DNA of 64,000 bases from Candidatus Eiseniibacteriota bacterium (GTDB taxonomy: Bacteria > Eisenbacteria > RBG-16-71-46): positions 3,424,001 through 3,488,000 of the forward strand of contig OY970178.1 in assembly GCA_963707915.1 (NCBI GenBank), in the 5' to 3' direction. This document shows, piece by piece, positions 3,661-61,238 of the stretch. The notes under the pieces were generated by a model. It ran no database searches. It was not told the origin of the DNA and saw only the letters and a list, made by a program, of their open reading frames with translations. Made by a program: the position numbers and the translations under genes. The stretch's first letter is position 1. Each line of letters begins with the position of its first letter.

Positions 3661-3694
3661 GCCCGGGGGGCGGCCTTGAAGCGGCCCCCCGGGC
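3661..3694 (+). terminator. GC-rich hairpin after flp (terminator or mRNA-stabilising stem)
   Basis: gcccggggggc...gccccccgggc, 11-bp stem; no clear U tract. Confidence 0.45.
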
Positions 3695-3806
3695 GCGGTA
3701 TTCCGCCCGCGGCCAAGTGCCGTCGCCCGGGTCCCGCGCCGCGGGACGCCGGCCCGCTCGCGGCGCCGCGCGGTTCGTATCGTCCCGGTGCACGGAGGCC
3801 CCGGTC

Positions 3807-4325: not shown

Positions 4326-4552
4326 CGGCCGATAGAGGGGCATAACGCCCAGAGCCCGCCAGGCGGGTTCGGGGCCGGAGTGGAGGGCGTCCCGGCAGGC
4401 GCGCCCGCCCGTCCGGTCCGCGACAAGGATGACGCAGCGATCAGGCTCGGCCCGTGGGATGCCCCGCCTCCAGCGACGGACGGCCTCCACTCCCACACTC
4501 GATGACACAGGCGCACTCGCGCGCGTGGACTGAGGAAGGAAGGGACAAGAAC

Positions 4553-5416
4553 GTGACCGCGAACAAGGGACAGGCATTCATGGGGCTGGCCGTCGTCCTC
4601 GGTCTGGCGGCCGCCGTCGTGGGCTACTTCGGCCTCAGCGCGGTGTCCACCCAGGCCCGGCGCGCGACCATGGGCGAGACGCAGGACGTCGTCGTCACCT
4701 CCGGCGACGTCACCTACGGCGAGAAGCTCGAGAAGAGCATGCTGCGCACGGTGCGCTATCCGCGCGAATCCGTTCCCGCGGGGGCCTTCTCGACGGTGGA
4801 CTCGGTCGTCGGGCAGACCACCAAGATCTTCATGACCGCCAAGGAACCGGTGACGGCCATCAAGCTCTCCTCGCTCGGCGGCGGCCTCTCGATGCTGGTG
4901 CGCCCGGGGATGCGCGCGGCCTCCGTCGAGGTCAACCAGGTCTCCGGCGTGTCGGGCTTCATCCTCCCCGGCGACCGCGTGGACATGCTGGTCACGGTCG
5001 AGAAGGTGGCGAACCCCGAGGACGCCTACACCCAGACGATCCTGCAGGACATCGAGGTGCTGGCTGCGGGCATGAAGACCACGACCCAGGACAACAAGCC
5101 GCTCGCCGTGCAGGCGGTTACGCTGCTGGTGGATCCCAAGGGCGCCGAGGTCATGGCGCACGCGCAGCGGCAGGGCTCGATCACGCTGGTGCTGCGCGCC
5201 CGCGACGACAACGCCCAGGTCTCCAAGACCACGCCGATCCGCACCGCGGACCTGCGCGGGAAGCCGGCGGTCGCGGCCCGCGTGGCCCGGGCGGCCGAGC
5301 CGGTGGTGCGCGTGGTCGAGCGCAAGCCGGCGGAGCCGCAGAAGGTGACCATCATCCGTCGCACGAGCAAGTCGGAGGAATCCCTCCCGGGCGACAGCGC
5401 GAACGCGAAGCGGTAG
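4553..5416 (+). CDS. cpaB: Flp pilus assembly protein CpaB/RcpC
   Basis: SAF domain plus PGMRAASV..GVSGFILPGDRVD..ILQDIEVLA..VTLLV. Confidence 0.93.
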   Translation: MTANKGQAFMGLAVVLGLAAAVVGYFGLSAVSTQARRATMGETQDVVVTSGDVTYGEKLEKSMLRTVRYPRESVPAGAFSTVDSVVGQTTKIFMTAKEPVTAIKLSSLGGGLSMLVRPGMRAASVEVNQVSGVSGFILPGDRVDMLVTVEKVANPEDAYTQTILQDIEVLAAGMKTTTQDNKPLAVQAVTLLVDPKGAEVMAHAQRQGSITLVLRARDDNAQVSKTTPIRTADLRGKPAVAARVARAAEPVVRVVERKPAEPQKVTIIRRTSKSEESLPGDSANAKR

Positions 5417-5461
5417 GACGGACCCGTCACTGCTCTCCACCGAATCGAGGAGGCACGTCTG

Positions 5462-6583
5462 ATGTCACTCGCCCATCCCAGGGACGCGATGCGAGGTGCC
5501 GTTCTGGCGGCCCTCTTGATGCTGGTCCCGGCGGCCGCCCTGTCCGCCGACGCGACCGAGAAGCTGCGGATCCCCGTCGGGCACGCGCAGGTCGTGCCGT
5601 CGCTCGACGACGTCCGCACCGTGGCGATCGCCGAGCCCGACATCGCGGACGCCGCGGTCGGCTCCGCGCGGACCGTGATCGTGACCGCGAAGTCGGCCGG
5701 CTCGACCAACCTGGTGGTCTACACCGACGGCGGCCGCTACCGGATCTTCGAGATCGAGGTCTTCGTGCCCAACCAGGAGAAGCAGGTCCTCCTGCGCTGC
5801 ACGGTGGCCGAGATGACCGATGCGGCGCTGAAGGAGCTCGGCTTCGACTTCTACGGCACCGGCAGCACCGCCAATCGCCTGGACGGGACGCTCGGCGGCG
5901 GGCTCTACACCACCAAGGTGGAGCCGCCCACGTACCCGCTGCTGCCCGAGCCCAAGCCGGGCGATATCGTGACCGTGCCCAACGCGAGCGGATTGCTCAA
6001 GTACGCCAGGAACGGCGCGGGCCTGAGCCTCCAGATGGAGTGGAAGGCGCTCGAGGAGCGGGGCGACATCCGCATGCTGGCGAACCCCTCGCTGCTGGCG
6101 AGCAGCGGGGAGAAGGCCGCGTTCCTGGCCGGCGGCGAGTTCGCCTACCAGATCATCTCGGGCTCCGGCTCGGGGGCGGCCCCGGCGATCGCCTTCAAGG
6201 AGTACGGCGTGCGCGTGGAGTTCACCCCGTTCGTCCAGGAGGACGGGAGCATCCGGCTGAAGGTGGCCCCCGAGGTCAGCGAGCCCGACTGGTCGCGCTC
6301 GGTCTTCGGCGTGCCGCCGCTCAACAGCCGCAAGGCCTCCACCACGGTGACGCTGCAGGCCGGCGAGTACCTGGTCATCGGCGGGCTCAAGCAGACCGTC
6401 AAGAACAAGCTCGTCCGCAAGGTGCCCGTGCTGGGGCACCTCCCGCTGCTCGGCGCCCTGTTCACCTATTCGCGGGACGAAGTCTCCAACAAGGAGCTCG
6501 TCATCACCGTCTCGCCGGAACTGGTCGCGGCCGGGGGCGCCGCGCCCGCGTTGCCCACCGACAAGCCCGACGCCACCCGGTAG
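5462..6583 (+). CDS. cpaC: Tad secretin CpaC/RcpA
   Basis: N-terminal VAIAEPDIADA; secretin motifs AFLAGGEF, FKEYGV, VPVLGHLPLLGALF. Confidence 0.92.
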   Translation: MSLAHPRDAMRGAVLAALLMLVPAAALSADATEKLRIPVGHAQVVPSLDDVRTVAIAEPDIADAAVGSARTVIVTAKSAGSTNLVVYTDGGRYRIFEIEVFVPNQEKQVLLRCTVAEMTDAALKELGFDFYGTGSTANRLDGTLGGGLYTTKVEPPTYPLLPEPKPGDIVTVPNASGLLKYARNGAGLSLQMEWKALEERGDIRMLANPSLLASSGEKAAFLAGGEFAYQIISGSGSGAAPAIAFKEYGVRVEFTPFVQEDGSIRLKVAPEVSEPDWSRSVFGVPPLNSRKASTTVTLQAGEYLVIGGLKQTVKNKLVRKVPVLGHLPLLGALFTYSRDEVSNKELVITVSPELVAAGGAAPALPTDKPDATR

Positions 6584-6787
6584 GAGCTGGCCGCCATGGC
6601 ACGTCGTCCGCCCGAGCCGGCAGACCGGGAGCGGGGCATCGTTCCCGGCCGGGGCCCGGCCCGCGCGGGCGGGGTCCCGGAGAGCCGATCCCCCGACGAT
6701 CACGACCTGCCGGCCGCCCCCGGGGGCGGCGCGGCACGAACCGCGCGAATGCCGCGACGGACCCGCTAGCATCCAGGGAAGGAACGC

Positions 6788-7999
6788 ATGTCCACGCCCA
6801 TCACCGTCGTCCTGGTCCATCGCAACGAGATGGAGCGCACCGCGCTGAAGACCGCTCTCGAGGCGCTGCCCGGCGTGCAGATCGGGGGCGAGCGCGCGGA
6901 ACTCCGCGCCGGGCTCGCGCTGGCCCACCAGGTGCGGCCCACCATCCTCGTGCTCGAGCTGGCGGTCCCGGTGGACGACACGCTCGGCGCGGTCGCGCAG
7001 TACAAGCTGGACCACCCCGACGTCGCGATCTTCCTCTCCTCCGAGCTGCTCGATCCCGACACCCTGCTGCGCGCGATGCGGGCGGGGGTCTCCGAGGTGC
7101 TGCGCCGTCCGTTGGACCGCGGCGCCATCGGGCAGGCGGTCGAGCGCGTGGCCGCGATGAGCGCGCGCGCCAAGGGCGGCGGGATCGCCCGCCACGTGTT
7201 CACCGTGTTCGCCAGCAAGGGCGGACAGGGAGTGAGCACGATCGCCAGCAACGTCGCGCTCAGCATCCGCCACGCCGCCCGGCGCGAGGTGGCCCTGGTG
7301 GACTTCGACTACCAGTCCGGCGACGTGGCCTTCATGCTGGGGCTCAACCCCAAGCGCTCGCTGGGCGACGTCATCGCCGCCCCGCGCATCGAGGCGACCA
7401 CGCTGCAGGACGCGCTGGCGAAGCACGAGAGCGGCGTGTTCGTGCTGGCCCAGCCCGAGCACCTCGATCGCGTCGACGGGCTCACCGCCAACCAGGTCGG
7501 CGGCGTGCTGGAGATCCTCGGCTCCACCTTCGACGTGGTGGTGGTGGACGCCCCGCACGTCATCAACGAGATCACGCTCGAGGTCTTCGACCGCTCCAGC
7601 ACCATCCTGCTCACGATCGAGCCCAGCGTGTCCTCGGTGCGGGCCGCGCGGCGTTCGCTCGAGATCTTCCACAAGCTGAACTACCTGACGATCCCCGATC
7701 GCGTGCGCCTGGTGCTGAACCGCCGCACCGAGCAGGAGTCGATCACCCCGGCCCAGCTCGAGGACACGCTCGGGCTGCCGGTGTTCGCCAGCGTCGCGAA
7801 CGACTACGCGGTCGTGAACCAGGCGATCAACATGGGCAAGCCGCTGTGCGGCGGCCCGGTGCCCGAAGGCCGCGCGGGCCGCGACCTCGCGAATCTCGCC
7901 CGGCTGCTCGTGCCGGTCGACGAGTCCGCCCAACCAGTGCCCACCGAAGAGGCCCCACCTCGGCGGTCCGGCGGGTCACGCTTCTTCCGAAGGGGGTAG
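6788..7999 (+). CDS. cpaE: CpaE/TadZ (receiver-like plus MinD-like ATPase)
   Basis: LRAMRAGVSE; deviant Walker A KGGQGVST; VALVDFD. Confidence 0.9.
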   Translation: MSTPITVVLVHRNEMERTALKTALEALPGVQIGGERAELRAGLALAHQVRPTILVLELAVPVDDTLGAVAQYKLDHPDVAIFLSSELLDPDTLLRAMRAGVSEVLRRPLDRGAIGQAVERVAAMSARAKGGGIARHVFTVFASKGGQGVSTIASNVALSIRHAARREVALVDFDYQSGDVAFMLGLNPKRSLGDVIAAPRIEATTLQDALAKHESGVFVLAQPEHLDRVDGLTANQVGGVLEILGSTFDVVVVDAPHVINEITLEVFDRSSTILLTIEPSVSSVRAARRSLEIFHKLNYLTIPDRVRLVLNRRTEQESITPAQLEDTLGLPVFASVANDYAVVNQAINMGKPLCGGPVPEGRAGRDLANLARLLVPVDESAQPVPTEEAPPRRSGGSRFFRRG

Positions 8000-8005
8000 G
8001 TCATC

Positions 8006-9381
<1,376 letters not shown>

Positions 9382-9385
<4 letters not shown>

Positions 9386-11411: not shown

Positions 11412-11489
11412 AGCCCCTGCCCCGGGGGCCCGCCGGCCGCGGGCCCGGTGCTGGCCGTCCACCGCCCGGCAGGCTAGAGTGCCGGGGCG

Positions 11490-12896
11490 ATGACGTCCCG
11501 CCCGAGGTCCCTGCGCGGCCTGCCGGCCGTCGAGATGCTGCTGAGCCACCCCGCGCTGGCCGCGGCCGGGGCGGACGTCCCGCGCCTGCTCCTGGTGGAA
11601 TCCGTGCGGGCCGAGCTCGCCCGGGAGCGCGCGCGTCTCCGTTCGGGGCCGGTCGAGCCCGCGGCCGCCGACGTGCTCGCCGCGCGCGCCGTCCGCCGCG
11701 CCCGCGAGGCCTGCCGCCCGCTGCTGCGGCGCGTGCTGAACGCCACCGGCGTGGTCCTGCACACCAACCTGGGCCGCGCCCCCCTGGCCCCCGCCGCGCA
11801 AGCCGCCGTCGCCACCGTCGCCGGCGGCTACAGCTCGCTGGAATACGACCTCGCATCCGGGCGGCGCGGCGACCGCGGCGCCGGGATCGAACGCTGGCTC
11901 ACGCGCCTCACCGGGGCGGAGGCGGCGCTGGTCGTCAACAACGGGGCCGCGGCCGTGCTGCTGGCGCTCTCGGCGCTGGCGGCGGGCCGCAAGGTCCTGG
12001 TCTCGCGCGGGGAGCTGGTCGAGATTGGCGGCTCCTTCCGCATTCCCGAGATCCTCGAGCGGAGCGGCGCCACGCTGGTCGAGGTCGGGACCACCAACCG
12101 CACGCACCTGCGCGACTACGAGCGCGCGCTCGAGCGCGAGGCCGGCGTGGCCGTCGTGCTGCGCGTCCATCCGAGCAACTTCCGGGTCGAGGGCTTCACC
12201 GCCCGGCCCGCGCTCGCGGAGCTGGCCGCCCTGGCCCGCCGGCGCCGGGTGGCGCTGGTCGAGGACCTGGGCAGCGGGGCGCTCGTCGACCTGGCGGCCT
12301 TCGGGCTCGAGCACGAGCCGACGGCGGGGGAGAGCCTCGCGGCCGGCTGCGACGTGGTCACGTGCTCCGGGGACAAGCTGCTGGGCGGCTCGCAGGCCGG
12401 GCTCGTGCTGGGGAAGCGGAAGTGGCTCGCCCGGCTGAAGCAGGACCCGCTGGCCCGCGCGCTGCGGCTGGACAAGCTCGCGCTGGCCGCGCTCGAGGCC
12501 ACGCTGCCGCTCTACGCCGATCCCGCCGGCGCGGCCCGCATGGTGCCGGTGCTGGCGATGCTGCGGCAGGGGCCCGCGGAACTCGAGGCCCGCGCCCGCC
12601 GCCTCGCGGCCGCACTTTCGGCACGGATCCCGGGGCTGCGGACGTCGGTCGCCCGGGGCTGGGGCGAGGTGGGCGGAGGCGCGCTGCCGACCCAGCGGCT
12701 GCCCGGCTGGGTGGTCGAGGTCGAGCAGGAGGGGCGCGACCCGCGCGAACTCGAGGCGCGCGCGCGCGCCGCCGAGCCGCCCGTGATCGGCACGCTGCGC
12801 GCGGGCCGCTGGCGGCTCGATCCGCGCACCCTCACCGAGGCCGAGTCGGACGAGGTGGTCGAGGCGCTGGCGCGGGCATTCGCCCCCGGCACCTGA
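11490..12896 (+). CDS. selA: L-seryl-tRNA(Sec) selenium transferase
   Basis: NATGVVLHTNLGRAPL, SRGELVEIGGSFRIP, SGDKLLGG. Confidence 0.96.
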   Translation: MTSRPRSLRGLPAVEMLLSHPALAAAGADVPRLLLVESVRAELARERARLRSGPVEPAAADVLAARAVRRAREACRPLLRRVLNATGVVLHTNLGRAPLAPAAQAAVATVAGGYSSLEYDLASGRRGDRGAGIERWLTRLTGAEAALVVNNGAAAVLLALSALAAGRKVLVSRGELVEIGGSFRIPEILERSGATLVEVGTTNRTHLRDYERALEREAGVAVVLRVHPSNFRVEGFTARPALAELAALARRRRVALVEDLGSGALVDLAAFGLEHEPTAGESLAAGCDVVTCSGDKLLGGSQAGLVLGKRKWLARLKQDPLARALRLDKLALAALEATLPLYADPAGAARMVPVLAMLRQGPAELEARARRLAAALSARIPGLRTSVARGWGEVGGGALPTQRLPGWVVEVEQEGRDPRELEARARAAEPPVIGTLRAGRWRLDPRTLTEAESDEVVEALARAFAPGT

Positions 12897-25713: not shown

Positions 25714-26595
25714 CTACCCGCCACTGGAGCAGCCGGGCACGCTCAAAGCGAGTTCCTCGGGCGCCTCGGCTCCTTCGACCTCGGCACGATACTCCGCCGG
25801 GGTCCGCTGCCCCAAGCTCCCGTGGGGCCGTCGGTTGTTGTACTCCTCCCGCCAGGCGTCGAGCGACACCCGGGCGTCGATGACAGACAGAAAGTAGTGT
25901 TGCGATAAGCACTCACGCCTCAGCTGGGCGTTGAAGCTCTCGATGAAGGGGTTGTCGGTCGGCTTGCCCGGACGGCTGAAGTCCAGCCGCACGTGATTGA
26001 CGTAGGCCCAGTGGTCGAACGCCTTCGAGGTGAACTCCGTCCCGTTGTCCACGTGAATCACCGCCGGCAACCCGCGCCGTACACCTTCGCGCGTCAGCAC
26101 CCGGGCGACCTCGGCGCCGCCGAATGAGCCGCTGACCTCGAGGGCCACGCACTCGCGGGTGAACGTGTCGAGCACCGTCAGCACCCGCAGCTTCCGGCCA
26201 TCCGCCAGCGCATCGCTCACGAAGTCCATCGCCCAGAGCTGGTTGGTCCCGGTGGCCGTGAGTGTCTCTTGCCGGCGCACCGCACTGCGGCGCCGCTTGG
26301 GCCGTTTCGACCGCAGACAGAGCCCTTCTTCCCGATATAGCCGGTACGTCCGCTTGGCGTTCACCTTCCAGCCTTCCCGACGCAGCAACACCTGCACGCG
26401 GCGATACCCGTAGCTCACCCGGGTCGTCGCGATCTCCTTGATCCTCTGGCGCAGCGGGGTCTGATCCGGCCGGACCGGGCGGTACAGCATCGAGGACATT
26501 GCCGTTCCCGAGGCGCGGCAGGCCTTGCGCAAGCTCACGCGGTAGGCCTCCTGCATCCAGCGGGTCACGGCGCGGCGCTCGACCGGCCTTACCAC
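25714..26595 (-). CDS. IS3 transposase OrfB (DDE)
   Basis: YGYRR, WAMDF, DNGTEF, PGKPTDNPFIESFN. Confidence 0.95.
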   Translation of the reverse strand: MVRPVERRAVTRWMQEAYRVSLRKACRASGTAMSSMLYRPVRPDQTPLRQRIKEIATTRVSYGYRRVQVLLRREGWKVNAKRTYRLYREEGLCLRSKRPKRRRSAVRRQETLTATGTNQLWAMDFVSDALADGRKLRVLTVLDTFTRECVALEVSGSFGGAEVARVLTREGVRRGLPAVIHVDNGTEFTSKAFDHWAYVNHVRLDFSRPGKPTDNPFIESFNAQLRRECLSQHYFLSVIDARVSLDAWREEYNNRRPHGSLGQRTPAEYRAEVEGAEAPEELALSVPGCSSGG

Positions 26596-26855
26596 TTTTT
26601 TCGGAGCGCCTCCTGCAGCATCGTCCGGTCCAGCGTCAGGTCCGCGACGACGGCCTTGAGGCGTCGGTTCTCGTCCCGCAGCTGCCGCAGCTCCCGCAGC
26701 TCCGGTGAGGAGATCCCACCGAACTTCTTCTTCCAGCGGTAGAACGTGGTCTCGGTGATGCCCAGCTCCCGGCAGACCTCCCCGACCACCACCCCGCCCT
26801 CGACCCGCTTCAGGGCCTGGGCAATCTGCTCGACCGTGAACTTGCTGGTCTTCAT
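26589..26855 (-). CDS. IS3 transposase OrfA (HTH)
   Basis: VCRELGITETTFYRWKKKF; A6G frameshift motif at its end. Confidence 0.95.
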   Translation of the reverse strand: MKTSKFTVEQIAQALKRVEGGVVVGEVCRELGITETTFYRWKKKFGGISSPELRELRQLRDENRRLKAVVADLTLDRTMLQEALRKKW

Positions 26856-27335
26856 CCTGGGTCCTCCTCCTTGCGGTTCAGGAGGCCCCGAGGTTAGCTC
26901 ATTGCGACAGTCCCGCTGCTCCAGGAAACGGGGAGCGGATCATGATGCACTCACCGCCCGCGAGGTCGGCGATCGTGCGCGCCACGCGCATGGCGCGATG
27001 CACAGCGCGCGCGCTCATGCCCCCACGGTCCACGGCGTCGGCGACGAGCCGTCGCCCGGCCTGATCCAGCGCGCAGCACTCATCGAGCCGCGACGGCGGC
27101 AGCAGCGCGTTCAGGCAGCCGCGCTCGCGCTGACGCGCCCGCGCCGCGAGCACACGCGCCCGAACCACGGCGCTCGACTCGCCCGCCGACGCCGCCTGCA
27201 GCTCGCGCGAGGTGAGCGCCGGCACCTCGACCTGCAGGTCGAGCCGGTCCAGCACCGGCCCGCTCACCCGGGCGTGGTAGTGCGCGATGTCGGTCGGCGT
27301 GCAGCGACAGCCGCGTTTCGGGTGCCCGAGCCACC

Positions 27336-27353
27336 CGCAACGGCACCGTTGCG
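27336..27353. other. Putative att/crossover site (8-bp inverted repeat around CA)
   Basis: cgcaacgg-CA-ccgttgcg, exactly where homology to comM stops; the partner CA is at 30220-30221. Confidence 0.7.
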
Positions 27354-27794
27354 TTGCCTTTCTGCAACCTCCGCCTCCGTGGGCGCCGACCGCGAGTAAT
27401 CCCAAGGGGTTATCCGCAGGAGCCTCGGACGCTTGGTCAGCAGATCCGCCGGCGGAGGATAGACCTGGGGCTGACGCAACGAACCCTCGCTGAGCGGCTG
27501 GGCTGCTGCTTGGAGACGGTGGCGGGATGGGAGCAGGACGAGAGCGTGCCCCTGGCCCGGCGCTGGCCGGCGATCGAATCCGCCCTCGGCCCCGGGCTCG
27601 TTCCGGAACGGGACGGCCTCCCGGGGCGGGTCCTGGCCGCCCGGCTCCGGCTGGGGCTCACGCAGGAGGCCTTGGCGAAGCTCGCGGGCGTGGACCTCAG
27701 GACTGTTCGCAACGTGGAGCGGGGCGTCGGGATTCCCCGTCCTTGCACCTTGGCGGGGATGGCCGCCGCCCTCGAAGTGGACCTCCGTGCCTGA
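27354..27794 (+). CDS. Tandem XRE-family helix-turn-helix protein
   Basis: TLGQQIRRRRIDLGLTQRTLAERLG...WE and RVLAARLRLGLTQEALAKLAGVD...VERG; TTG start uncertain. Confidence 0.82.
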   Translation: MPFCNLRLRGRRPRVIPRGYPQEPRTLGQQIRRRRIDLGLTQRTLAERLGCCLETVAGWEQDESVPLARRWPAIESALGPGLVPERDGLPGRVLAARLRLGLTQEALAKLAGVDLRTVRNVERGVGIPRPCTLAGMAAALEVDLRA

Positions 27795-27945
27795 GACCGG
27801 GTTCGCCCACACCCATGGCTGGGGAGGATGTGGCGGGCGCCCTGCCATTCGATATCGGTGATCCGCTCCCCGTTTCCTGGAGCAGCGGGACTGTCGCAAT
27901 GAGCTAACCTCGGGGCCTCCTGAACCGCAAGGAGGAGGACCCAGG

Positions 27946-28212
27946 ATGAAGACCAGCAAGTTCACGGTCGAGCAGATTGCCCAGGCCCTGAAGCGGGTCG
28001 AGGGCGGGGTGGTGGTCGGGGAGGTCTGCCGGGAGCTGGGCATCACCGAGACCACGTTCTACCGCTGGAAGAAGAAGTTCGGTGGGATCTCCTCACCGGA
28101 GCTGCGGGAGCTGCGGCAGCTGCGGGACGAGAACCGACGCCTCAAGGCCGTCGTCGCGGACCTGACGCTGGACCGGACGATGCTGCAGGAGGCGCTCCGA
28201 AAAAAGTGGTAA
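27946..28212 (+). CDS. IS3 transposase OrfA
   Basis: Identical protein to 26589..26855. Confidence 0.95.
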   Translation: MKTSKFTVEQIAQALKRVEGGVVVGEVCRELGITETTFYRWKKKFGGISSPELRELRQLRDENRRLKAVVADLTLDRTMLQEALRKKW

Positions 28213-29087
28213 GGCCGGTCGAGCGCCGCGCCGTGACCCGCTGGATGCACGAGGCCTACCGCGTCAGCTTGCGCAAGGCCTGCCGCGCCTCGGGAACGGC
28301 AATGTCCTCGATGCTGTACCGCCCGGTCCGGCCGGATCAGACCCCGCTGCGCCAGAGGATCAAGGAGATCGCGACGACCCGGGTGAGCTACGGGTATCGC
28401 CGCGTGCAGGTGTTGCTGCGTCGGGAAGGCTGGAAGGTGAACGCCAAGCGGACGTACCGGCTATATCGGGAAGAAGGGCTCTGTCTGCGGTCGAAACGGC
28501 CCAAGCGGCGCCGCAGTGCGGTGCGCCGGCAAGAGACACTCACGGCCACCGGGACCAACCAGCTCTGGGCGATGGACTTCGTGAGCGATGCGCTGGCGGA
28601 TGGCCGGAAGCTGCGGGTGCTGACGGTGCTCGACACGTTCACCCGCGAGTGCGTGGCCCTCGAGGTCAGCGGCTCATTCGGCGGCGCCGAGGTCGCCCGG
28701 GTGCTGACGCGCGAAGGTGTACGGCGCGGGTTGCCGGCGGTGATTCACGTGGACAACGGGACGGAGTTCACCTCGAAGGCGTTCGACCACTGGGCCTACG
28801 TCAATCACGTGCGGCTGGACTTCAGCCGTCCGGGCAAGCCGACCGACAACCCCTTCATCGAGAGCTTCAACGCCCAGCTGAGGCGTGAGTGCTTATCGCA
28901 ACACTACTTTCTGTCTGTCATCGACGCCCGGGTGTCGCTCGACGCCTGGCGGGAGGAGTACAACAACCGACGGCCCCACGGGAGCTTGGGGCAGCGGACC
29001 CCGGCGGAGTATCGTGCCGAGGTCGAAGGAGCCGAGGCGCCCGAGGAACTCGCTTTGAGCGTGCCCGGCTGCTCCAGTGGCGGGTAG
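28206..29087 (+). CDS. IS3 transposase OrfB
   Basis: Differs from copy 1 by one Q/H substitution. Confidence 0.95.
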   Translation: MVRPVERRAVTRWMHEAYRVSLRKACRASGTAMSSMLYRPVRPDQTPLRQRIKEIATTRVSYGYRRVQVLLRREGWKVNAKRTYRLYREEGLCLRSKRPKRRRSAVRRQETLTATGTNQLWAMDFVSDALADGRKLRVLTVLDTFTRECVALEVSGSFGGAEVARVLTREGVRRGLPAVIHVDNGTEFTSKAFDHWAYVNHVRLDFSRPGKPTDNPFIESFNAQLRRECLSQHYFLSVIDARVSLDAWREEYNNRRPHGSLGQRTPAEYRAEVEGAEAPEELALSVPGCSSGG

Positions 29088-47755: not shown

Positions 47756-49519
<1,764 letters not shown>

Positions 49520-49535
49520 GCGACGCCGACAGAAA

Positions 49536-49573
49536 CACGGACGGGCGGCAGGGACTCCTGCCGCCCGTCCGTG
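49536..49573. terminator. 17-bp perfect hairpin after rnc, probably a bidirectional terminator
   Basis: cacggacgggcggcagg-gact-cctgccgcccgtccgtg; TTTCT follows on the minus strand. Confidence 0.75.
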
Positions 49574-49667
49574 CCTTCAGCGCCGGGCGATCTTCCGTTC
49601 CGGAAGACCTGGGGGATCCGGCCGCTCCCCGGGGGACATGGGGACCTGGCCGGGCCCGGCGCTCCGG

Positions 49668-49791
49668 AAATCAAGGAAGCGAGGGGCTTGCGCCCCCCGC
49701 TTCAAGACTGTCGCCACGCGCATTCAAGACAGGCCCCTCGGATCTTCCGTGTCCGTCATGTGGTGACGACAGAAACCATGCTTGTCTTCAC
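49668..49791 (-). ncRNA. Candidate sigma54-dependent small RNA (about 120 nt)
   Basis: Lies between a -24/-12 promoter and a GCAA-tetraloop hairpin (49676-49703); internal complementary segments. Confidence 0.55.
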
Positions 49792-49801
49792 GGTTGACCA
49801 A

Positions 49802-49818
49802 AGCACCCAGGATGCCAA
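49802..49818 (-). promoter_or_regulatory. sigma54 promoter
   Basis: Minus strand TTGGCATCCTGGGTGCT (GG-N10-GC). Confidence 0.7.
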
Positions 49819-49929
49819 CGTCGGAAATCGCGCGGATGAGATGTCTATATTGCTACAGGGCAAACACTTGGTGCGATACGTGCGGTGGCGATCCGCACCG
49901 GTTCGGAGGGGGATGAAGGCGGCTAGAAC

Positions 49930-50031
49930 GGGACATCATGTCGCACTTGATGGTCGTCATGCAGCAATCTATTGCGGTGCATCTAGTTGAATGAGCGCGA
50001 CAATGTGACGCTGATGGGGACAATATGTCCT
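49930..50031. promoter_or_regulatory. Three GACA-N3-TGWC palindromes, putative bEBP enhancer sites
   Basis: gggacatcatgtcgc 49930-49944; gcgacaatgtgacgc 49997-50011; gggacaatatgtcct 50017-50031. Confidence 0.6.
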
Positions 50032-51457
50032 AGTCAGTGCCTTCGTTGCGCCGTTGGCGCTCGGCTCGCCGGTGGAGGGTCCGGCGGGAGATCCCCAGGA
50101 TCTTGGCGGCCCGGGTCTGGTTTCCCTTCGCGTGGTCGAGCACGTGCTCGACGTAGCGCTCGATCATGGCCTCCAGCGGCGGGAGTCCGGATTCCAGGGC
50201 GGGGAACTCCGGCACCGGCTGGATACCGTGGAGCCTGGGTGGGAGGGACTCCGGCGTGATGAAGCCGTGCGTGGACATGAGCACCGCCCGTTCCAGCACG
50301 TTCTCCAGCTCGCGCACGTTGCCGGGCCAGGGGTAGGCCTTGAGCAGGCTGAAGGCCTCGGCGGACACGCGGGGCGACACCTTTCCGGTCTCGTGCTCGT
50401 AGTCGCGCAGGAAGTGCTCGACCAGCATCTCGACGTCATGCGCTCCGCGTTCCCGCAGCGGCGGCAGGGAGATCGAGACCACGTTCAGCCGGTAGAACAG
50501 GTCCTCGCGAAACAGCCCGCGCTGCACCATCTCGTCGAGGTTGCGGTGCGTGGCGCCGACGAGCCGCACGTCCACTTCGTGCTCCTCGTTCCCGCCCACC
50601 GGCTTGATGCGATGCTCCTGGATCACCCGTAGGAGCTTGGCCTGGAGCGGCTGCGAGAGGTCGCCGATCTCGTCGAGGAACAACGTGCCCCGGTGCGCCT
50701 CGTCGAAGAGCCCGCGTCGGGCGGTCATGGCCCCCGTGAACGCGCCCCGCACGTGGCCGAACATCTCGCTCTCCAGCAGGCCCTCGGGGATGGCCGAGAC
50801 GTTCACCGCGACGAAGCGCTCCGCGTGGCGCGGACTGCGCTTGTGGAGCATCCGCGCCACCAGTTCCTTGCCGGTGCCGCTCTCCCCCAGGATCAGCACG
50901 TTGGTCCGGCTCGGGGCGACGCGCTGCAGCACCTTGTAGACCTCGAGCATCTGCGGCGAGGAGCCGACGATCTCCCCGGTCGGGAGCCGCTTGCTGACCT
51001 CGCGCTGCAGGTGCCGCACCTCCTCGGCCATGCGCTTCTTCTCGATCGCGCGGCGCAGGAGGGCGCCCATGACCTCGAGCTGGGGGGGCTTCGCGAGGTA
51101 GTCGTAGGCGCCGCCTTTGATCGCCTCCATGGCGGTGTCGATGGTGCCCTTGCCGGTGATGAGCACGACCGGGATCTCGGGAGAGTCCGCCTGCACTTGC
51201 CGGAGCAGGTCGAGGCCGCTCCGCCCGGGGGTGCGGAAATCGAGGTCCGTGAGGACGACGTCGTAGGAATCCCGGAGGAGCTGGCCGGCGGCCTCGTCCA
51301 CGCTGGCGGCGATGGTGGGGGCATGACCGAGCGCCTCGGCCATGCGGGCGATGGCCTGTGCCACGTCCAGGTCGTCGTCCACGACGAGGATCCGGGCGGG
51401 CGGCTGGCCGGCGACGGGGGCCGTCGGTTCCGGCGGGATGGAGTCGTTCGCGCTCAC
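50030..51457 (-). CDS. sigma54-dependent NtrC/AtoC-family response regulator
   Basis: Receiver domain, GESGTGKE, GAFTGA, WPGNVRELEN, Fis-type HTH. Confidence 0.96.
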   Translation of the reverse strand: MSANDSIPPEPTAPVAGQPPARILVVDDDLDVAQAIARMAEALGHAPTIAASVDEAAGQLLRDSYDVVLTDLDFRTPGRSGLDLLRQVQADSPEIPVVLITGKGTIDTAMEAIKGGAYDYLAKPPQLEVMGALLRRAIEKKRMAEEVRHLQREVSKRLPTGEIVGSSPQMLEVYKVLQRVAPSRTNVLILGESGTGKELVARMLHKRSPRHAERFVAVNVSAIPEGLLESEMFGHVRGAFTGAMTARRGLFDEAHRGTLFLDEIGDLSQPLQAKLLRVIQEHRIKPVGGNEEHEVDVRLVGATHRNLDEMVQRGLFREDLFYRLNVVSISLPPLRERGAHDVEMLVEHFLRDYEHETGKVSPRVSAEAFSLLKAYPWPGNVRELENVLERAVLMSTHGFITPESLPPRLHGIQPVPEFPALESGLPPLEAMIERYVEHVLDHAKGNQTRAAKILGISRRTLHRRAERQRRNEGTD

Positions 51458-51572: not shown

Positions 51573-53300
51573 ATGTCATCCGTCGCACGCGTCCTCAGCC
51601 TCATCCTCCTCGCGGCCGCGACGGCGGGGCTGCCCGTCCGGGCGGCCGGATTCCCTGCCGTCCCCGGCCCGGACGCTGCCCGGCCCGGCGACCGATCCGG
51701 AACCGCGGCCCCGGCCCCGGACGCCGCGGGGGCGCTCGACCACTATCTCTCCGGCCTGCTGTTGGAAGAACGCGGGATCGAGGCGGACGCGCTCGAGGAG
51801 TACCTGCAGGCGCTCCGCCTGGATCCGGGGCGGCCCGGGATCGAGCTCCGGGTGAGCGAGATCGCGGGTCGGCTCGGACAGTCGGAGCGCTCGCTCGAAT
51901 ATGCCCGGCTCGTGCTCGAACACGATCCCGGCGATGCGCGCGCCGCCTGGCTGCAGGGCAGCGCGCTGTTCAACCTGGGACGGCCCCAGGAGGCGCTGGA
52001 GGCGCTCCGCGCCGCCGTGGCCGCCGATTCGCAGCAGGTGGACTACTGGAGGACGCTGGCCCGCGTCGCCGACCTGCTCGACCAGCCCGACCTGGCGGCC
52101 CGGGGGTGGCGCCACGCCGTCGCGCTCGACGCGGACGACGGGGAGGCCTGGTTCCAGCTGGCCGCGATCGAGACGCGCTGGGGCCACTTCGTGCTCGCCG
52201 ACTCCCTCCTGAGCGAGGCGGTGGCGATCAACCCGGTGCGGCCGGGCGCGCTCTTCCTCGCCGGCTGGATCCAGGACGGCCTCGGGCACCCGACGGAGGC
52301 CATGCGACTCTACCGTCAGCACCTGGAGCTCCATCCTGCCGACCAGGTCACCCGGCGCCGCCTGGTGCGCCTGCTGGTGGGCGCGGGGCGGTACGCCGAG
52401 GCCTACGACGAGGTTCGAGTCGTGCGACGGGCGGAGCCCGACGATATCGAGGCGATCGGCGTCGAGGCCGACCTGGCGCTGCGCCTCGGCCACGCCGACC
52501 GGGCCGGCGAGCTGCTGGACGAGTTGGTGGCGTCCGACCCGGCCGACCCGGCCCGCGTGGCGCAGGTGGCCGGCATCCTCACGCGGCGCGGTCGCGAACG
52601 CCAGGCCCTGGCGCTGGTGGAGGACTGGAGCCGGGGCCACGCCGCCGACTACCGCGGCCTGATGCTCCTGGCCCAGATGCGCGCAGAGACCGGCGACACC
52701 GCCGGGGCCGAAGCGGTGGCGCGGCGCGCCGTCGAGATCGTCCCGGACTCGCTGGCGCCGCGCTTCCTGCTGGGGGGGCTGATGCAGGCGCGCGGCCGGT
52801 TCGCCGCGGCCGAATCCCTGTGGGCGGACCTGGTGCTCCGGGGACGGGCTCCGGCGCGGGCGGGGCTGCAACTGGCCTATTGCCGCGAACGGATGGGCGA
52901 CGTGGACGGCGCGGTGCGCGCGGTCCGCGAGGTGCTTGCCCGCGAGCCCGGGAGCAGCGAGGCGCTCAATTCCCTGGGGTACCTCCTCGCCGATCACGGG
53001 CGCGACCTGGCCGAGGCGGAGGACCTGGTTCGAAGGGCCCTGGCGCAGGAGCCGGACAACGGCGCCTACCTGGATTCGAGGGGTTGGGTCTACTATCGGC
53101 TCGGCCGGCTGGCGGAGGCGCGAGCGGACCTCGAACGGGCGGCCGAGTTGACCGACGGGGACCCGGTGGTCTGCGAGCACCTGGGTGACGTCTACAAGGA
53201 CTTGAACCTCACCGACTTGGCGAGGGAGCAGTACGCGCGGAGCCTGAGCCGGGACCCGGGCAACGCCCGGCTCCGGGACAAGCTGTCCAGGTTGCGCTGA
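51573..53300 (+). CDS. Exported TPR protein
   Basis: Signal peptide; TPRs; ALNSLGYLLAD...YLDSRGWVYYRLG...EHLGD. Confidence 0.9.
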   Translation: MSSVARVLSLILLAAATAGLPVRAAGFPAVPGPDAARPGDRSGTAAPAPDAAGALDHYLSGLLLEERGIEADALEEYLQALRLDPGRPGIELRVSEIAGRLGQSERSLEYARLVLEHDPGDARAAWLQGSALFNLGRPQEALEALRAAVAADSQQVDYWRTLARVADLLDQPDLAARGWRHAVALDADDGEAWFQLAAIETRWGHFVLADSLLSEAVAINPVRPGALFLAGWIQDGLGHPTEAMRLYRQHLELHPADQVTRRRLVRLLVGAGRYAEAYDEVRVVRRAEPDDIEAIGVEADLALRLGHADRAGELLDELVASDPADPARVAQVAGILTRRGRERQALALVEDWSRGHAADYRGLMLLAQMRAETGDTAGAEAVARRAVEIVPDSLAPRFLLGGLMQARGRFAAAESLWADLVLRGRAPARAGLQLAYCRERMGDVDGAVRAVREVLAREPGSSEALNSLGYLLADHGRDLAEAEDLVRRALAQEPDNGAYLDSRGWVYYRLGRLAEARADLERAAELTDGDPVVCEHLGDVYKDLNLTDLAREQYARSLSRDPGNARLRDKLSRLR

Positions 53301-53353: not shown

Positions 53354-53977
53354 TTGCCGACTGACCGAGACGCATCGGCGCCTCCGATCCTGAGCCTCTC
53401 GGACGAGGATCTCATGGACCGGGTGGCGGTGGACGACCAGAGAGCGTTCCCTGAGCTCGTGCGTCGTTTCCAGGGCCGGGTCACCAATCTGGTGAGCCGG
53501 GTCCTGAACGATCGGGAATGCGCCGACGACCTGGCGCAGGAAGTCTTCGTGCGGGTGTTCGTGCACCGCCGAAACTACCGGCACGGGTCGAAGTTCTCGA
53601 CCTGGGTCTTCACGATCGCCGCCAACCTCGCGAAGAACGAGATCCGGCGGCGGGTCCGCAGACGCAACTGGTTCAGCCTGGATGCGCTGGAAGAGACGTT
53701 GAAGGACCGTGCGATCCAGCTCGCGGATACCACGGAAGGTCGGGAGACGACGCTCGAGCGGGAGCAACTCCAGGACGCCGTGGGGCGGGCGATCGCGACG
53801 GTGCCGGAGAAGTACCGGCTGGCCCTGGTCCTGAGGGACATCGAGGGCCTGCCTTACGAGGAGATCGCACAGGTGCTGGGAATCCCGGGCGGGACGGTGC
53901 GCTCGCGCATCAACCGCGCCCGGGGCATGCTCAAGCACAAGCTTCAACCGCTGCTCGCGAAAGCAGGAGACCCATGA
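53354..53977 (+). CDS. ECF sigma factor
   Basis: DLAQEVF, KFSTWVFTIAAN, YEEIA...GTVRSRINRAR. Confidence 0.94.
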   Translation: MPTDRDASAPPILSLSDEDLMDRVAVDDQRAFPELVRRFQGRVTNLVSRVLNDRECADDLAQEVFVRVFVHRRNYRHGSKFSTWVFTIAANLAKNEIRRRVRRRNWFSLDALEETLKDRAIQLADTTEGRETTLEREQLQDAVGRAIATVPEKYRLALVLRDIEGLPYEEIAQVLGIPGGTVRSRINRARGMLKHKLQPLLAKAGDP

Positions 53978-54549
53978 TCTGCAAACGGGCCCGGCACCTC
54001 TTCGGGGCCTGCTGGGATGACGAGCTCACGCAGGCCGAGCGGGACGGGCTCGAGAGCCACCTCGCCTCGTGCCCGGCGTGCCGTGCGGAGTACGACGATT
54101 TCTCCCGCACCCTCGAGCTGGCGGCCTCGCTTCCCAGGATCGACGCCTCCGCCGACTTCGCGGACCGGGTGCTGGCGCGCGCGCGCCGCGCCACGACCGC
54201 GCCGGACCTCGTCCGTGGGACCGGCGCGCGCTGGGTGCCCGCCGCCGTGGCGGCCGCGGCGGCCGTGCTGGTCATCGCCGCCGTGCTGGTCGGGCCGAAC
54301 CTCCGCTGGAAGTCGCCGGCCTCGAGCCAGGCCCCGCGGGTCGTCGAGATCAACGGGCCGCGGGAGCCGCGCTTCGCACCGCAGGCCGACCTGGAGCCGG
54401 GGGCTCGCCGTCCGGAGGCCCGCCGGGGGGACGATGAGAGCCTGTTCGATCCGGACAAGAACGTCGAGTTCGTGCTCGGCTCGGTCGAGGTGGGTGGCGG
54501 CCGGGTCAAGCGGGACCCCGAGGGACAGCAACCGATCATCACCTTCTAA
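53974..54549 (+). CDS. zf-HC2 membrane anti-sigma factor
   Basis: MIC...HLASCPAC followed by a TM helix. Confidence 0.9.
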   Translation: MICKRARHLFGACWDDELTQAERDGLESHLASCPACRAEYDDFSRTLELAASLPRIDASADFADRVLARARRATTAPDLVRGTGARWVPAAVAAAAAVLVIAAVLVGPNLRWKSPASSQAPRVVEINGPREPRFAPQADLEPGARRPEARRGDDESLFDPDKNVEFVLGSVEVGGGRVKRDPEGQQPIITF

Positions 54550-54567
54550 GCGAAGGCATCCGCCGGG

Positions 54568-55701
54568 ATGACGAAAAGAGGCTATCGCGCGGGGCGCCGG
54601 GCGGCCTGGCTGGCCGGCATTTTGGTGTTGCTCCTCGCCCCCTCTGCCCGCCCCCAGGCTGCGCCGTCCGCTCCGCCCGATGGCGTCGAAGCGATCGCAA
54701 ACCAGGCCGCGCGCAGTGTGGTCACGGTCTCCGCCCAGCGCACCGAGCCCCGCAGCCGGCCCCGCCCCGCGCGTTCCGCTCCCCGCGTGTACACCTCGGT
54801 CGGCTCGGGCGTGGCGGTGGAGGAGAACGTCATCCTCACCACCGCGAGCGTCGTGCTGGGCTCCGAGCGCATCGTCGTGCGCACCGCCAACGGCCTCGAG
54901 GCGGAAGCGCAACTGGCCGGCATGGACCTCATCTTCAACGTGGCCATGCTCCGGGTGCCGGACCTGCAGATCCCGTGGCTCAAGCCCGCCGCGGTCCCGG
55001 CCCAGCTCGGCGACCGGGTGATCGTGGTGGGGACCTCCTACCGGGCCCAGTCCACGCAGTCTGTCGGCATGGTCGAGTTCGTCTACCGGGAGCCGCGCAC
55101 TTCGCTCCTGCAGCTCACCAACATCGTCTACCCCGGCAACAGCGGGGGGGCGGCGCTCAATCCCCGGGGCGAGCTGGTGGGGATCGTGCAGGGCGAACTC
55201 GGCGCGCCCGACCCCGGCATCGGCGGGACCGCCGACCGCCGGCCGGGCGGGAGCAGCATCGTGATGCCCATCCGGCAGGTGTGGCCCGTCTACGAGAGCC
55301 TCAAGCGGGACGGGCGCATGCACCACGGCTACCTGGGCGTCAGCACGCGGGCGGAAGCGGTGCGCAGCGAGATCGACAGCGCGGTGGTGGCGCTAGGCGC
55401 CAGGGTCGAGAGCGTGCAGGCCGGCGGTCCGGCGGAGCGCGTGGGGCTCAGGCCCCGGGACCTCATCGTGGGCTTCGAGAGCGAGCGGGTCGAGTACCCC
55501 GAGCAACTGGCGCGCTGGGTGGCCGAGACCCCCCCCGGCACGGCCGTGACCCTGGTCTGGGTCCATGGCGACGAGCGGCGCTCCGGACGCGTGGCCCTGG
55601 CCGAATCGCGCGATTCGCTCCCGGCCTGGGCGCTGGGCGGCTTGCGCGGGTCCCCGAAGCCGAGCCCGGCACCCGCCGCGGGCGGCAGCCGGCGGCGTTG
55701 A
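54568..55701 (+). CDS. HtrA/DegP-like trypsin-PDZ protein with a degenerate catalytic triad
   Basis: GSGV, PGNSGG, HGYLGV and PDZ present; His and Asp motifs altered. Confidence 0.85.
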   Translation: MTKRGYRAGRRAAWLAGILVLLLAPSARPQAAPSAPPDGVEAIANQAARSVVTVSAQRTEPRSRPRPARSAPRVYTSVGSGVAVEENVILTTASVVLGSERIVVRTANGLEAEAQLAGMDLIFNVAMLRVPDLQIPWLKPAAVPAQLGDRVIVVGTSYRAQSTQSVGMVEFVYREPRTSLLQLTNIVYPGNSGGAALNPRGELVGIVQGELGAPDPGIGGTADRRPGGSSIVMPIRQVWPVYESLKRDGRMHHGYLGVSTRAEAVRSEIDSAVVALGARVESVQAGGPAERVGLRPRDLIVGFESERVEYPEQLARWVAETPPGTAVTLVWVHGDERRSGRVALAESRDSLPAWALGGLRGSPKPSPAPAAGGSRRR

Positions 55702-60548: not shown

Positions 60549-61238
60549 GTGCCGGCGCAGGTCGCCGTCCTGCTCACCCCCGGGGACGGGACCGTGCCCG
60601 CGGGGGCCACCGCCGTGGTGGTGGACGTGCTGCGCGCCACCACCGTCCTCACGATGGCGCGCCTGCACGGGGCGCGCGCGATCCTCGCCGCCGGCACGCC
60701 CGGGGACGCCCTGGCGCTGCGCGCCCGGTTCCCCGGCGCCCTGCTGTGCGGCGAGCGCGACGGGCGCCGGATCGAGGGCTTCGACCTCGGCAACTCGCCC
60801 TTCGAGTACGGCCCGGAGACCGTCGGCGGCCGTACGCTGGTCTTCGCCTCCACGAACGGCTCGCAGGCGCTGCTCGCCGCGGGCCCCGCGCGGCGGCGGG
60901 TGCTCGGCGCCTTCGTCAACGCGAGCGCGGTGCTCGAAGCGGTGGCCGCGGACCGGCGCGTCGCCGTCGTGTGCGCGGGCAAGCTGGGCGGCTACGCGCT
61001 CGAGGACGCCGCCCTCGCCGGCTGGCTGGTGGAGCGGCTGGCCGCGCGCGGCGCGCTCGTCCGTGGCGCCGCGGCGGCGTTCGCGCGCCGCATCGCCCCG
61101 CGCGACGCGGCCGAGGTGCGCGCGCTGGTGCAGGGCTCCGCGCACGGGCGCACCCTGCGTGCCATGGGCGCGGGGTACGCGCGCGACGTGGAGTTCTGCG
61201 CCGGGCTCGACACGATCGCGCGGGCGTTCGAGGCCTGA
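60549..61238 (+). CDS. comB: 2-phosphosulfolactate phosphatase family protein
   Basis: VDVLRATT, GER.G..IEGFDLGNSP, STNG, ED. Confidence 0.9.
   Translation: MPAQVAVLLTPGDGTVPAGATAVVVDVLRATTVLTMARLHGARAILAAGTPGDALALRARFPGALLCGERDGRRIEGFDLGNSPFEYGPETVGGRTLVFASTNGSQALLAAGPARRRVLGAFVNASAVLEAVAADRRVAVVCAGKLGGYALEDAALAGWLVERLAARGALVRGAAAAFARRIAPRDAAEVRALVQGSAHGRTLRAMGAGYARDVEFCAGLDTIARAFEA

Follow-up and report, generated by a model that had tools for sequence, protein, structure and literature searches.

Small regulatory RNAs (sRNAs) made from sigma-54 promoters are known from several bacteria as neighbours of bacterial enhancer-binding protein (bEBP) genes. In Vibrio the luxO gene has Qrr1 as its neighbour, and in Enterobacteria GlrR/QseF is paired with GlmY; in these cases the sigma-54-dependent sRNA is a principal output of the bEBP, produced at or near the regulator's own locus. 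The Qrr sRNAs are Hfq-dependent, about 100 nt long and carry a conserved 5′ seed, GlmY is a decoy for RapZ, and CrcZ is about 400 nt long with several A-rich motifs. More generally, CsrA sponges carry many GGA motifs in loops, and Hfq-binding sRNAs have a Rho-independent terminator, a U-rich tail and A-rich or ARN motifs. The present analysis concerns a 64,000 nt stretch of contig OY970178.1 (hereafter the window) from Candidatus Eisenbacteria (Eiseniibacteriota), a phylum known from metagenome-assembled genomes (MAGs) only, and within it a predicted sRNA gene that follows the stop codon of an NtrC-family bEBP gene on the minus strand. Known bEBP-adjacent sigma-54 sRNAs are arranged in the same way, and the RNA is therefore read as the output of the regulator. 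It differs from Qrr and GlmY in having no Rfam match and no Hfq-type 3′ U-tail.

The Pxr gene of Myxococcus xanthus, a myxobacterium, is located directly 3′ of the sigma-54 response-regulator gene nla19/pxrR, and is preceded by an intergenic region of ~260 nt with an enhancer-binding region and a sigma-54 promoter (PMC5568312, PMC5684412). As described in the same two papers, Pxr is ~108 nt long with three predicted stem-loops, the loop of the first being essential, has a long and a short form, and is found in a lineage that lacks hfq; it is called exclusive to myxobacteria in PMC5684412. The locus studied here shares this layout: the bEBP stop lies ~240 nt from the predicted start of an RNA of ~125 nt with three helices and two probable isoforms. 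It belongs to another phylum, however, its downstream neighbour is rnc instead of the NADH dehydrogenase gene found behind pxr, and the likeness is drawn from the published descriptions. The single Myxococcales bEBP locus examined (L014, 48% identity) showed neither the promoter motif nor a match to the RNA model.

NrsZ of Pseudomonas aeruginosa, according to its description in PMC4253122, has an RpoN promoter, depends on NtrB/C and is processed to shorter forms. It occupies a tail-to-tail intergenic position after a bEBP gene, as does the RNA described here, but it consists of repeated modules and serves the classical NtrBC nitrogen system, while the regulator in the window is an orphan; this likeness also is by description. 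CrcZ (with CrcY and CrcX, in Pseudomonadaceae) is described as a separate sigma-N unit directly 3′ of the bEBP gene cbrB, activated directly by CbrB via several subsites, with read-through from the cbrB promoter adding a basal level; its synteny with cbrAB is kept family-wide, and it acts as an Hfq/Crc sponge (PMC8871633). The window likewise has a sigma-54 sRNA unit right behind a bEBP gene, but its RNA is smaller and rich in G+C, presents just one invariant G-rich tip, and matches no Rfam family.

The predicted RNA represents a new family in an uncultured phylum, of a kind known from Pxr, NrsZ and CrcZ, with which it was compared by their descriptions and by Rfam only. We regard as real, on comparative grounds, a conserved and previously undescribed candidate sRNA family with a complete predicted sigma-54 control region. 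The core of the original prediction, an unannotated sigma-54-dependent sRNA gene with upstream enhancer sites 3′ of an NtrC-family gene, is strongly supported, on comparative evidence, by promoter, spacing, covariation, strand and the lack of a conserved ORF or an Rfam match. It is likely that the locus specifies an expressed, sigma-54-dependent non-coding RNA (ncRNA), and the adjacent bEBP is probably its activator. The full interpretation, an independently transcribed, bEBP-activated regulatory sRNA that acts in trans as the post-transcriptional output of the regulator, is given a probability of roughly 0.6; what we infer from the features listed below is transcription itself, where the RNA begins and ends, the identity of the bEBP at the palindromes and the way in which the RNA acts.

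50030..51457, minus strand: bEBP gene, an orphan NtrC-family response regulator of 475 aa, from Pfam and translation motifs
50019..50029, no strand assigned: putative upstream activating sequence (UAS) palindrome 1, GACATATTGTC, GACA-N3-TGTC type, abutting the bEBP stop
49999..50009, no strand assigned: putative UAS palindrome 2, GTCACATTGTC, same type, 20 bp from site 1
49932..49942, no strand assigned: putative UAS palindrome 3, GACATGATGTC, same type
49818..49931, minus strand: spacer between UAS and promoter, not conserved, G+C ~0.56 against ~0.70 in the flanks
49803..49817, minus strand: predicted sigma-54 (-24/-12) motif, TGGCATCCTGGGTGC, TGGCAT-N5-GTGC with GG-N10-GC spacing, from a motif scan
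49666..49791, minus strand: predicted short sRNA of ~125 nt with leader, P1, P2, P3 and tail, from the fold and the R1 model
49708..49772, minus strand: core rod, in which P1 encloses P2, with P1b, from pairing in the alignment
49772-49763 with 49717-49708, minus strand: helix P1, 10 bp, CUGUCGUCAC with GUGGCGACAG, from RNAalifold
49754-49747 with 49733-49727, minus strand: helix P2, GGACA-C-GG with CC-UGUCU and a possible 2-bp tip, from RNAalifold
49732..49741, minus strand: invariant G-rich apical segment, CCGAGGGGCC, from the alignment
49666..49703, minus strand: P3, a 12-bp GC hairpin GAAGCGGGGGGC-GCAA-GCCCCUCGCUUC (49703-49676), then the tail CUUGAUUUCC, from a terminator scan
49580..49662, minus strand: 3′ domain of a putative long isoform, from alignment and RNAalifold
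49526..49573, minus strand: distal GC hairpin (49573-49536) and tail UUUCUGUCGG, a bidirectional terminator common to rnc, with the better U-run on the minus strand
47756..49519, plus strand: rnc (RNase III), convergent, with a long C-terminal tail, from Pfam and NCBIfam

A bEBP-based scan with one genome per species gave 37 loci for comparison. In L001-L011 the bEBP is 57-87% identical to that of the window and the records are titled Candidatus Eisenbacteria or uncultured bacterium, candidate phylum; the other 26 loci, from different phyla, show 32-48% identity. The closest relatives of the window are Candidatus Eisenbacteria MAG loci. The contig of L009 ends within the bEBP gene, leaving ten loci with downstream DNA, which together with the window make 11 sequences. 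All ten carry the RNA core in the same synteny, and all ten have the motif CCGAGGGG(C/U)C 3′ of the bEBP gene and on its strand. The gene order, an extracytoplasmic function (ECF) sigma factor and a tetratricopeptide repeat (TPR) protein, then bEBP and RNA, then rnc and fabF, is kept in L001-L011 wherever the contig reaches; rnc is found downstream in 9/11 loci and fabF in 8/11, the misses being contig ends (L005 and L009, and L004 for fabF). Within this frame the 68-nt core of the orthologues is 0.64-0.97 identical to the window, against 0.48-0.59 for the adjoining spacer and 0.15-0.56 for the leader.

The TGGCAT-N5-GTGC element, already pointed out in the original prediction, is at 49817-49803 and has GG at -24 and GC at -12, separated as GG-N10-GC. 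It is near the sigma-54 consensus TGGCAC-N5-TTGCW as quoted in PMC4253122. The pattern TGGCAY-N6-TGC is found in all 11 sequences, the window included. At the 25 more distant bEBP loci no sigma-54-like motif was found within 700 bp 3′ of the bEBP gene, and the module is absent there. A simple scan of 49300-50200 revealed no sigma-70-like promoter. The sole other TGGCAY-N6-TGC match in the window, TGGCACGCAGGGTGC (61150-61164, minus strand), is inside what by eye appears to be the 3′ end of a plus-strand gene, an open reading frame (ORF) without a Pfam match; it has no GACA-N3-TGTC palindromes nearby and is probably a chance occurrence.

Three GACA-N3-TGWC palindromes, two of them 20 bp apart, had been reported after the regulator's stop, and are indeed present at 50029-50019, 50009-49999 and 49942-49932; with their flanks they read roughly GnGACA-N3-TGTCnC. 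Counted across loci at ≤2 mismatches to GACANNNTGTC, palindrome 1 lies at or over the bEBP stop in 11/11 sequences, at a distance of 210-218 bp from the promoter (210-213 bp in 10/11). Palindrome 2 follows 18-21 bp past site 1 in 9/11 loci (it is missing from L002 and L005), and palindrome 3 follows 84-89 bp past site 1 in 10/11 (missing from L010). These are clustered dyad sites of conserved position within ~100-250 bp upstream of a -24/-12 element, as is usual for a UAS, and are regarded as putative sites. A fourth exact palindrome, GACAAGCTGTC, is found at 53277-53287, where the TPR gene ends (within its final codons) and ~70 bp before the ECF sigma gene, with no sigma-54 motif near. A similar sequence is present at the same place in L007 and L009. 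It is probably a coding coincidence, or could be a second site for the same regulator.

An IHF-like site in the AT-rich spacer, CAAGTGTTTG (49870-49861; CAAACACTTG on the plus strand), was also part of the original prediction and did not hold up: it has 2 mismatches to WATCAANNNNTTR, a score equalled in 131/500 shuffles, and the best matches in the other loci, with 1-3 mismatches, are scattered in position and on either strand.

The stretch downstream of the promoter, ~120 nt without a credible ORF as first described and ~125 nt by the present estimate, has a folding energy of -60.5 kcal/mol (z -3.85) as minus-strand RNA; its plus-strand counterpart reaches -54.6 kcal/mol (z -2.96). In the core alignment A1 (11 sequences, 123 columns, 76% mean column identity), 34 columns are invariant, including all 10 of CCGAGGGGCC in 11/11 sequences. 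RNAalifold finds 31 pairs in A1, of which 11 have changes on both sides: seven among the 12 pairs of P3, two in P1 and two in P2. Standard pairs fill 96.7% of the pair cells, a share that drops to 43.5-47.5% if the partners are shifted by 1-3 columns, and 0/500 shuffles match the observed pairing values by any of five measures. The paired cells amount to 99.1% in P1, 93.5% in P2 and 96.2% in P3. P1b, a 5-bp extension, is partly supported, with two of its five pairs covarying and two broken in four sequences. Of the two pairing segments first proposed, CUGUCGUCAC/GUGGCGACAG is helix P1 and stands, whereas the AAGAC/GUCUU helix is rejected because the leader that would contain it is not conserved. 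The 12-bp stem with a GCAA tetraloop and one G-U pair (49703-49676), expected to form on this strand only, was recovered as P3, which a scan flags as terminator-like on the minus strand only, with 12 pairs and a tail in which T makes up at least 5 of 8 bases. Because the sequences are few and related, these covariation numbers denote consistency with the structure and not proof of it.

The strand of the RNA is fixed by its wobble pairs. There are nine U-G cells in P1, a G-U pair of P2 in seven sequences, and others in P3, all of which would be A-C mismatches on the other strand, and the minus strand is assigned for this reason. With R2, a covariance model restricted to P1-P2, the sense orientation scores 54-95 bits and the antisense of the same intervals 9-17 bits, and the orientation of the promoter and the U-tails agree. 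Compensatory changes, a strand signal and the lack of a conserved ORF are the general marks of a structured ncRNA, seen here in 11 related sequences.

The R1 model was run over the window and the 37 loci (358,397 bases). It scored 123.3 bits in the window and found one match in each of the ten loci, at 55-126 bits; the next-best match was 29 bits, and no locus outside Eisenbacteria did better than E 0.19. By R1, and by R2 with filters off over the window and the ten loci, the window contains a single copy of the RNA, as does each Eisenbacteria locus apart from L010. At ~1440-1475 on the plus strand of the window, about 18 of 20 positions resemble the core sequence GGAAGAUCCGAGGGGCC..., with no R2 match there. 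In L010, positions 5746-5816 (plus strand) hold a weak tandem P1-P2 module after the first copy, with CCGAGGGGUC (19.7 bits, E 0.018; R2, filters off), which may be a lineage-specific duplication of a functional unit.

Upstream of P1 the RNA is variable. In seven loci the promoter is 20-31 nt from P1; the distance grows to 46 nt in L010 and to 138-149 nt in the trio L005, L006 and L011. These three have an extra, unrelated, G+C-rich 5′ segment (L005 ~2650-2785, L006 ~5640-5785 and L011 ~5560-5705, plus strand), similar between L006 and L011. These extensions of 120 nt looked by eye like degenerate copies of the core, an idea dropped after R2 gave no match at E ≤10 and R1 none.

If the locus had no function, the pattern would reflect slow divergence of intergenic DNA in close genomes, dotted with chance motifs. 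The comparison sequences do all come from one phylum with conserved synteny, and the motifs taken singly are at chance frequency in the window. Spacer and leader, however, have decayed to 0.15-0.59 identity while the core stays at 0.64-0.97 beside a bEBP that is itself only 57-87% identical, the helices are maintained by double-sided changes, and palindrome 1 keeps a constant 210-218 bp from the promoter. Absence of function is accordingly the least likely of the explanations considered.

A peptide is a further possibility. An ATG ORF of 48 codons occupies 49577-49723 on the minus strand, with GAGGGG 10 nt upstream of the ATG as a would-be ribosome-binding site, and L001 has a 48-codon ORF in the same frame with the same stop. 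The codon aligned with ATG 49723, however, is ATG in three sequences, TTG in three, GTG in one, CTA in two and CCG in two, and reading on from it gives 21, 21, 42, 44, 48, 48 and 74 codons, while four sequences stay open for at least 150. Similarity is confined to the first ~16 codons, and these are exactly the P1/P3 stretch of the RNA; single-base indels break the frame in L008 and in the 3′ domain of L007; substitutions arrive as compensatory pairs; and the start codon would be buried in P1b. The candidate peptide was rejected, its start, frame and length not being conserved, and a small protein gene is very improbable as the explanation of the locus.

No family of Rfam 15, with Qrr, CsrB/RsmX/Y/Z, GlmY/Z and CrcZ models counted where Rfam holds them, was matched at the gathering score in the window or in the ten orthologous loci. 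At E ≤10, searched for the locus and L006, there were only hairpin-level matches, either on the distal terminator or far below cut-offs; one of these, at the hairpin of the distal terminator (49537-49573), is a weak CsrC match of 19.7 bits, far short of the gathering score of 279. A literature search for the invariant motif strings found none. Among the papers listed for Eisenbacteria, titles and the openings of abstracts pointed to ecological or genomic surveys only.

More strictly conserved than any stem, the apical segment CCGAGGGGCC is probably where a target RNA or a protein would make contact. If the contact is a protein, the RNA would titrate an RNA-binding protein (CsrA/RsmA, Hfq or another) at the tip of the hairpin; a CsrA or Hfq sponge was the guess attached to the original prediction. 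Sequence-specific recognition by a protein would fit both the 10-nt segment that is invariant in 11 sequences and a conserved CAYGGAR, and the weak tandem module of L010 has the same motif. Sponge RNAs often multiply their sites, and a bEBP-adjacent sigma-54 sponge RNA has been described in CrcZ (PMC8871633). An RNA sequestering CsrA/RsmA would be expected to show multiple GGA motifs, mostly in loops. The two ACGGA motifs reported earlier are both present within 49756-49746, yet the two GGA are 6 nt apart and just one of them is conserved across loci (as CAYGGAR, in 11/11), with no repeats of GGA in loops. There are no A-rich repeats of the CrcZ type, and the sole ARN-like run is in the non-conserved leader. 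The U-tails after P3 are poor for Hfq. No CsrB, Rsm or CrcZ family of Rfam matches the body of the RNA at E ≤10, the CsrC match being on the distal hairpin, and neither csrA nor hfq was among the ~65 ORF translations scanned in these 64 kb of the genome. The sponge guess fares poorly on this evidence, and titration of a protein is an unlikely mode of action. Base-pairing through the apical segment is a possibility entertained with some doubt. RNAduplex runs of the conserved 34 nt against the window were uninformative, with 12,190 40-nt scan windows below -22 kcal/mol in this DNA of 70% G+C; besides the trivial antisense match, the best duplex was at ~1440-1475 on the minus strand.

The predicted 3′ ends suggest two forms of the RNA. 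P3 and the distal hairpin each combine a GC hairpin with a U-tract in the manner of intrinsic terminators, the tails of P3 being weak in several orthologues. After P3 the tail is CUUGAUUUCC in the window, and L001, L003, L004 and L007 have no U-runs. Beyond it is a conserved 3′ domain that, with the second terminator (together 49526-49662), was missed by the original prediction, as were the Pxr and NrsZ precedents. The domain consists of an outer stem, GCGCCGGGC with GCCCGGCGC; a hairpin with a covarying stem and a 9-nt loop, AUGUCCCCC (49639-49631), which reads AYGUCCCCC across loci; a C-rich linker (49617-49610); and a second hairpin (49609-49589). It is 85 nt long and aligns in the window, L001, L007 and L002, partly in L003 and L004, and is absent from L005, L006, L008 and L011. 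RNAalifold on four sequences of the domain gives 49 pairs and 10 double-sided changes, and the full 271-nt fold has a z of -8.48. The distal stem GGGCGGC...GCCGCCC is kept in 6/6 aligned loci. Counted from the alignment, the ten bases after P3 contain ~0-5 U in the six loci with the 3′ domain and ~3-8 U in L006, L011, L008 and L005. As the tails are poorer where the 3′ domain exists, partial read-through in the clade of the window would yield a short form of ~125 nt and a long form of ~265 nt, and P3 is probably a terminator-like element that is leaky in that clade.

The position between two convergent genes raises the question of whether the element acts in cis instead, as the 3′ untranslated region (UTR) or terminator of the bEBP gene, or as an insulator or antisense element directed at rnc (an RNase III substrate, or a control of the rnc 3′ end). 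The interval from the bEBP stop to the RNA contains no terminator, rnc is placed tail-to-tail wherever sequence is available, the distal terminator is common to both genes, and the long irregular hairpin resembles RNase III substrates. A 3′ UTR, on the other hand, would hardly explain a sigma-54 motif at a fixed distance from three palindromes in 11/11, and the most conserved part is the 10-nt apical sequence, not just the stems. The RNA is also intact in L011 despite ~1 kb of extra DNA before rnc (~5830-7700, by comparison with L006), and the long form would stop at the terminator without overlapping the rnc coding region (stop at 49517-49519). A cis element is, on balance, unlikely. At the start of this extra DNA of L011 is an ORF whose translation, judged by eye, looks like a zinc-finger transposase.

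The trans-acting sRNA that is preferred here would operate as follows. The phosphorylated orphan bEBP would bind the three GACA-N3-TGTC palindromes ~125-215 bp upstream of the promoter and drive open-complex formation at TGGCAT-N5-GTGC (49817-49803). Transcription would begin near 49791, a start predicted by taking the GC at 49804-49803 as -13/-12, and yield an RNA of ~125 nt. In this RNA a leader, short and variable, would precede a long irregular hairpin, made up of P1, P1b, an internal loop rich in G and A, and P2, that presents the invariant G-rich apical segment AUCCGAGGGGCC; the GC-rich terminator hairpin P3 would follow. Read-through of P3 would probably add the 85-nt domain, with two C-rich single-stranded stretches, and end at 49573-49536, for a total of ~265 nt. 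Because no terminator separates the bEBP stop from the RNA, basal read-through is possible, and transcripts of the bEBP gene may supply a basal level of the RNA, as described for crcZ. The RNA would then act in trans, either by base-pairing via the apical segment or by using that segment as a protein-binding site.

Several observations weigh against this interpretation. The promoter, the start site and both 3′ ends are predictions. The sigma-54 pattern has two matches in the window against 1.0 expected, and the palindrome 13 at ≤1 mismatch against 18.5 expected (three of the 13 crowd into 98 bp); counted singly in the window, the motifs are not above chance, and the case rests on the comparison between loci. 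The palindromes would be tied to the adjacent bEBP by proximity and precedent, and sites 1 and 2 overlap the end of the bEBP coding region in some loci. The U-tract of P3 is weak in the window and almost lacking in L003 and L004. The duplex scan, made over the window, identified no target or partner. All 11 sequences come from one phylum and are in conserved synteny, and shared ancestry therefore makes the conservation look greater than it is, the shuffle control being uncorrected for relatedness. Lastly, many helix positions, five of the ten pairs in P1 and the 2-bp tip among them, are the same in every sequence and carry no information on covariation.

The regulator gene ends with a TAG at 50032-50030 (minus strand). 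Pfam recognises the domains Response_reg, Sigma54_activat (1.3e-68), AAA_lid_14 and HTH_8 in its product, and the translation shows the GAFTGA loop and the Walker A sequence GESGTGKE; a receiver domain, an AAA+ domain with GAFTGA and a C-terminal Fis-type helix-turn-helix (HTH) are the constituents of an NtrC-type bEBP, and all are found in the 50030-51457 product. No NCBIfam equivalog cut-off is reached, the top match being AtoC with 438.7 bits against 714, and the bEBP is therefore an unclassified NtrC-family member; by the NCBIfam cut-offs, assignment to AtoC, NtrC, PrsR, LuxO or GlrR is unsupported. The ~65 ORF translations scanned in the 64-kb window include no histidine kinase or rpoN, and neither nitrogen genes nor a kinase gene surround the bEBP in the window.

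Upstream of the bEBP gene and divergent from it are genes for the TPR protein, the ECF sigma factor, a zf-HC2 anti-sigma-like protein and an HtrA-like protease. The last three (53354-55701, plus strand; the protease with Trypsin_2 and PDZ) adjoin the bEBP locus, and their combination suggests an envelope-stress-type module. The ECF sigma factor is 80-98% identical across loci, far more conserved than the bEBP (57-87%).

On the other side, rnc closes a plsX-fabD-fabG-acpP-fabF cluster. The start of its ORF overlaps fabF (end 47873), so that the true start is probably later than 47756. The predicted RNase III has a C-terminal extension of ~260 aa past the double-stranded RNA-binding domain, the Pfam domains stopping near residue 324 of 587, and the gene (47756-49519), especially 48700-49100, has a G+C of 0.80-0.84 and a strong AT skew. 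The tail is partly kept in relatives, tblastn matches reaching residue 577 in L007 and ~326-356 in others.

Elsewhere in the window, two near-identical IS3-type transposase sets (HTH_Tnp_1 and rve) in inverted orientation (25714-26939, minus strand; 27862-29087, plus strand) flank a small HTH_3 gene (27216-27794), so that 25714-29087 resembles a composite transposon. The intervals 3291-9385 and 11478-12896 (plus strand) hold a Flp/Tad pilus cluster, with genes for Flp pilin, prepilin peptidase, RcpC/CpaB, secretin, a ParA-like ATPase and a T2SSE ATPase, and a selA (selenocysteine synthase) gene, whose presence implies selenocysteine use by the organism.

A more far-reaching proposal, considered quite unlikely, is that the bEBP-sRNA cassette is an ancient, phylum-wide unit, that the orphan regulator acts directly through the RNA mainly or exclusively, and that the GAGGGG tip, which is Shine-Dalgarno-like, serves as a decoy. 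The tip would then compete for a C-rich partner, either the RNA's own CCCCC loops in the long isoform (which would be self-gated) or an RNA-binding protein. In a bolder variant, the cassette may share ancestry with the myxobacterial pxrR-pxr and be a module transferable across phyla. Concepts of RNA regulation would be unchanged unless the decoy or the Pxr-homology reading is true.

The predicted sRNA would be the first regulatory RNA for the phylum, and would come with a complete, testable circuit of regulator, sites, promoter and a structured RNA with an invariant tip. It would be an independent example, outside Proteobacteria and Myxococcota, of an sRNA gene placed behind the stop codon of a sigma-54 activator, and would favour the idea of a recurrent design over that of a peculiarity of one lineage. 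In soil metagenomes, proteins related to the regulator are common (at least 62 proteins are at least 60% identical to it among the 120 matches listed), and the R1 and R2 models could be used to annotate the RNA in soil metagenomes and metatranscriptomes.

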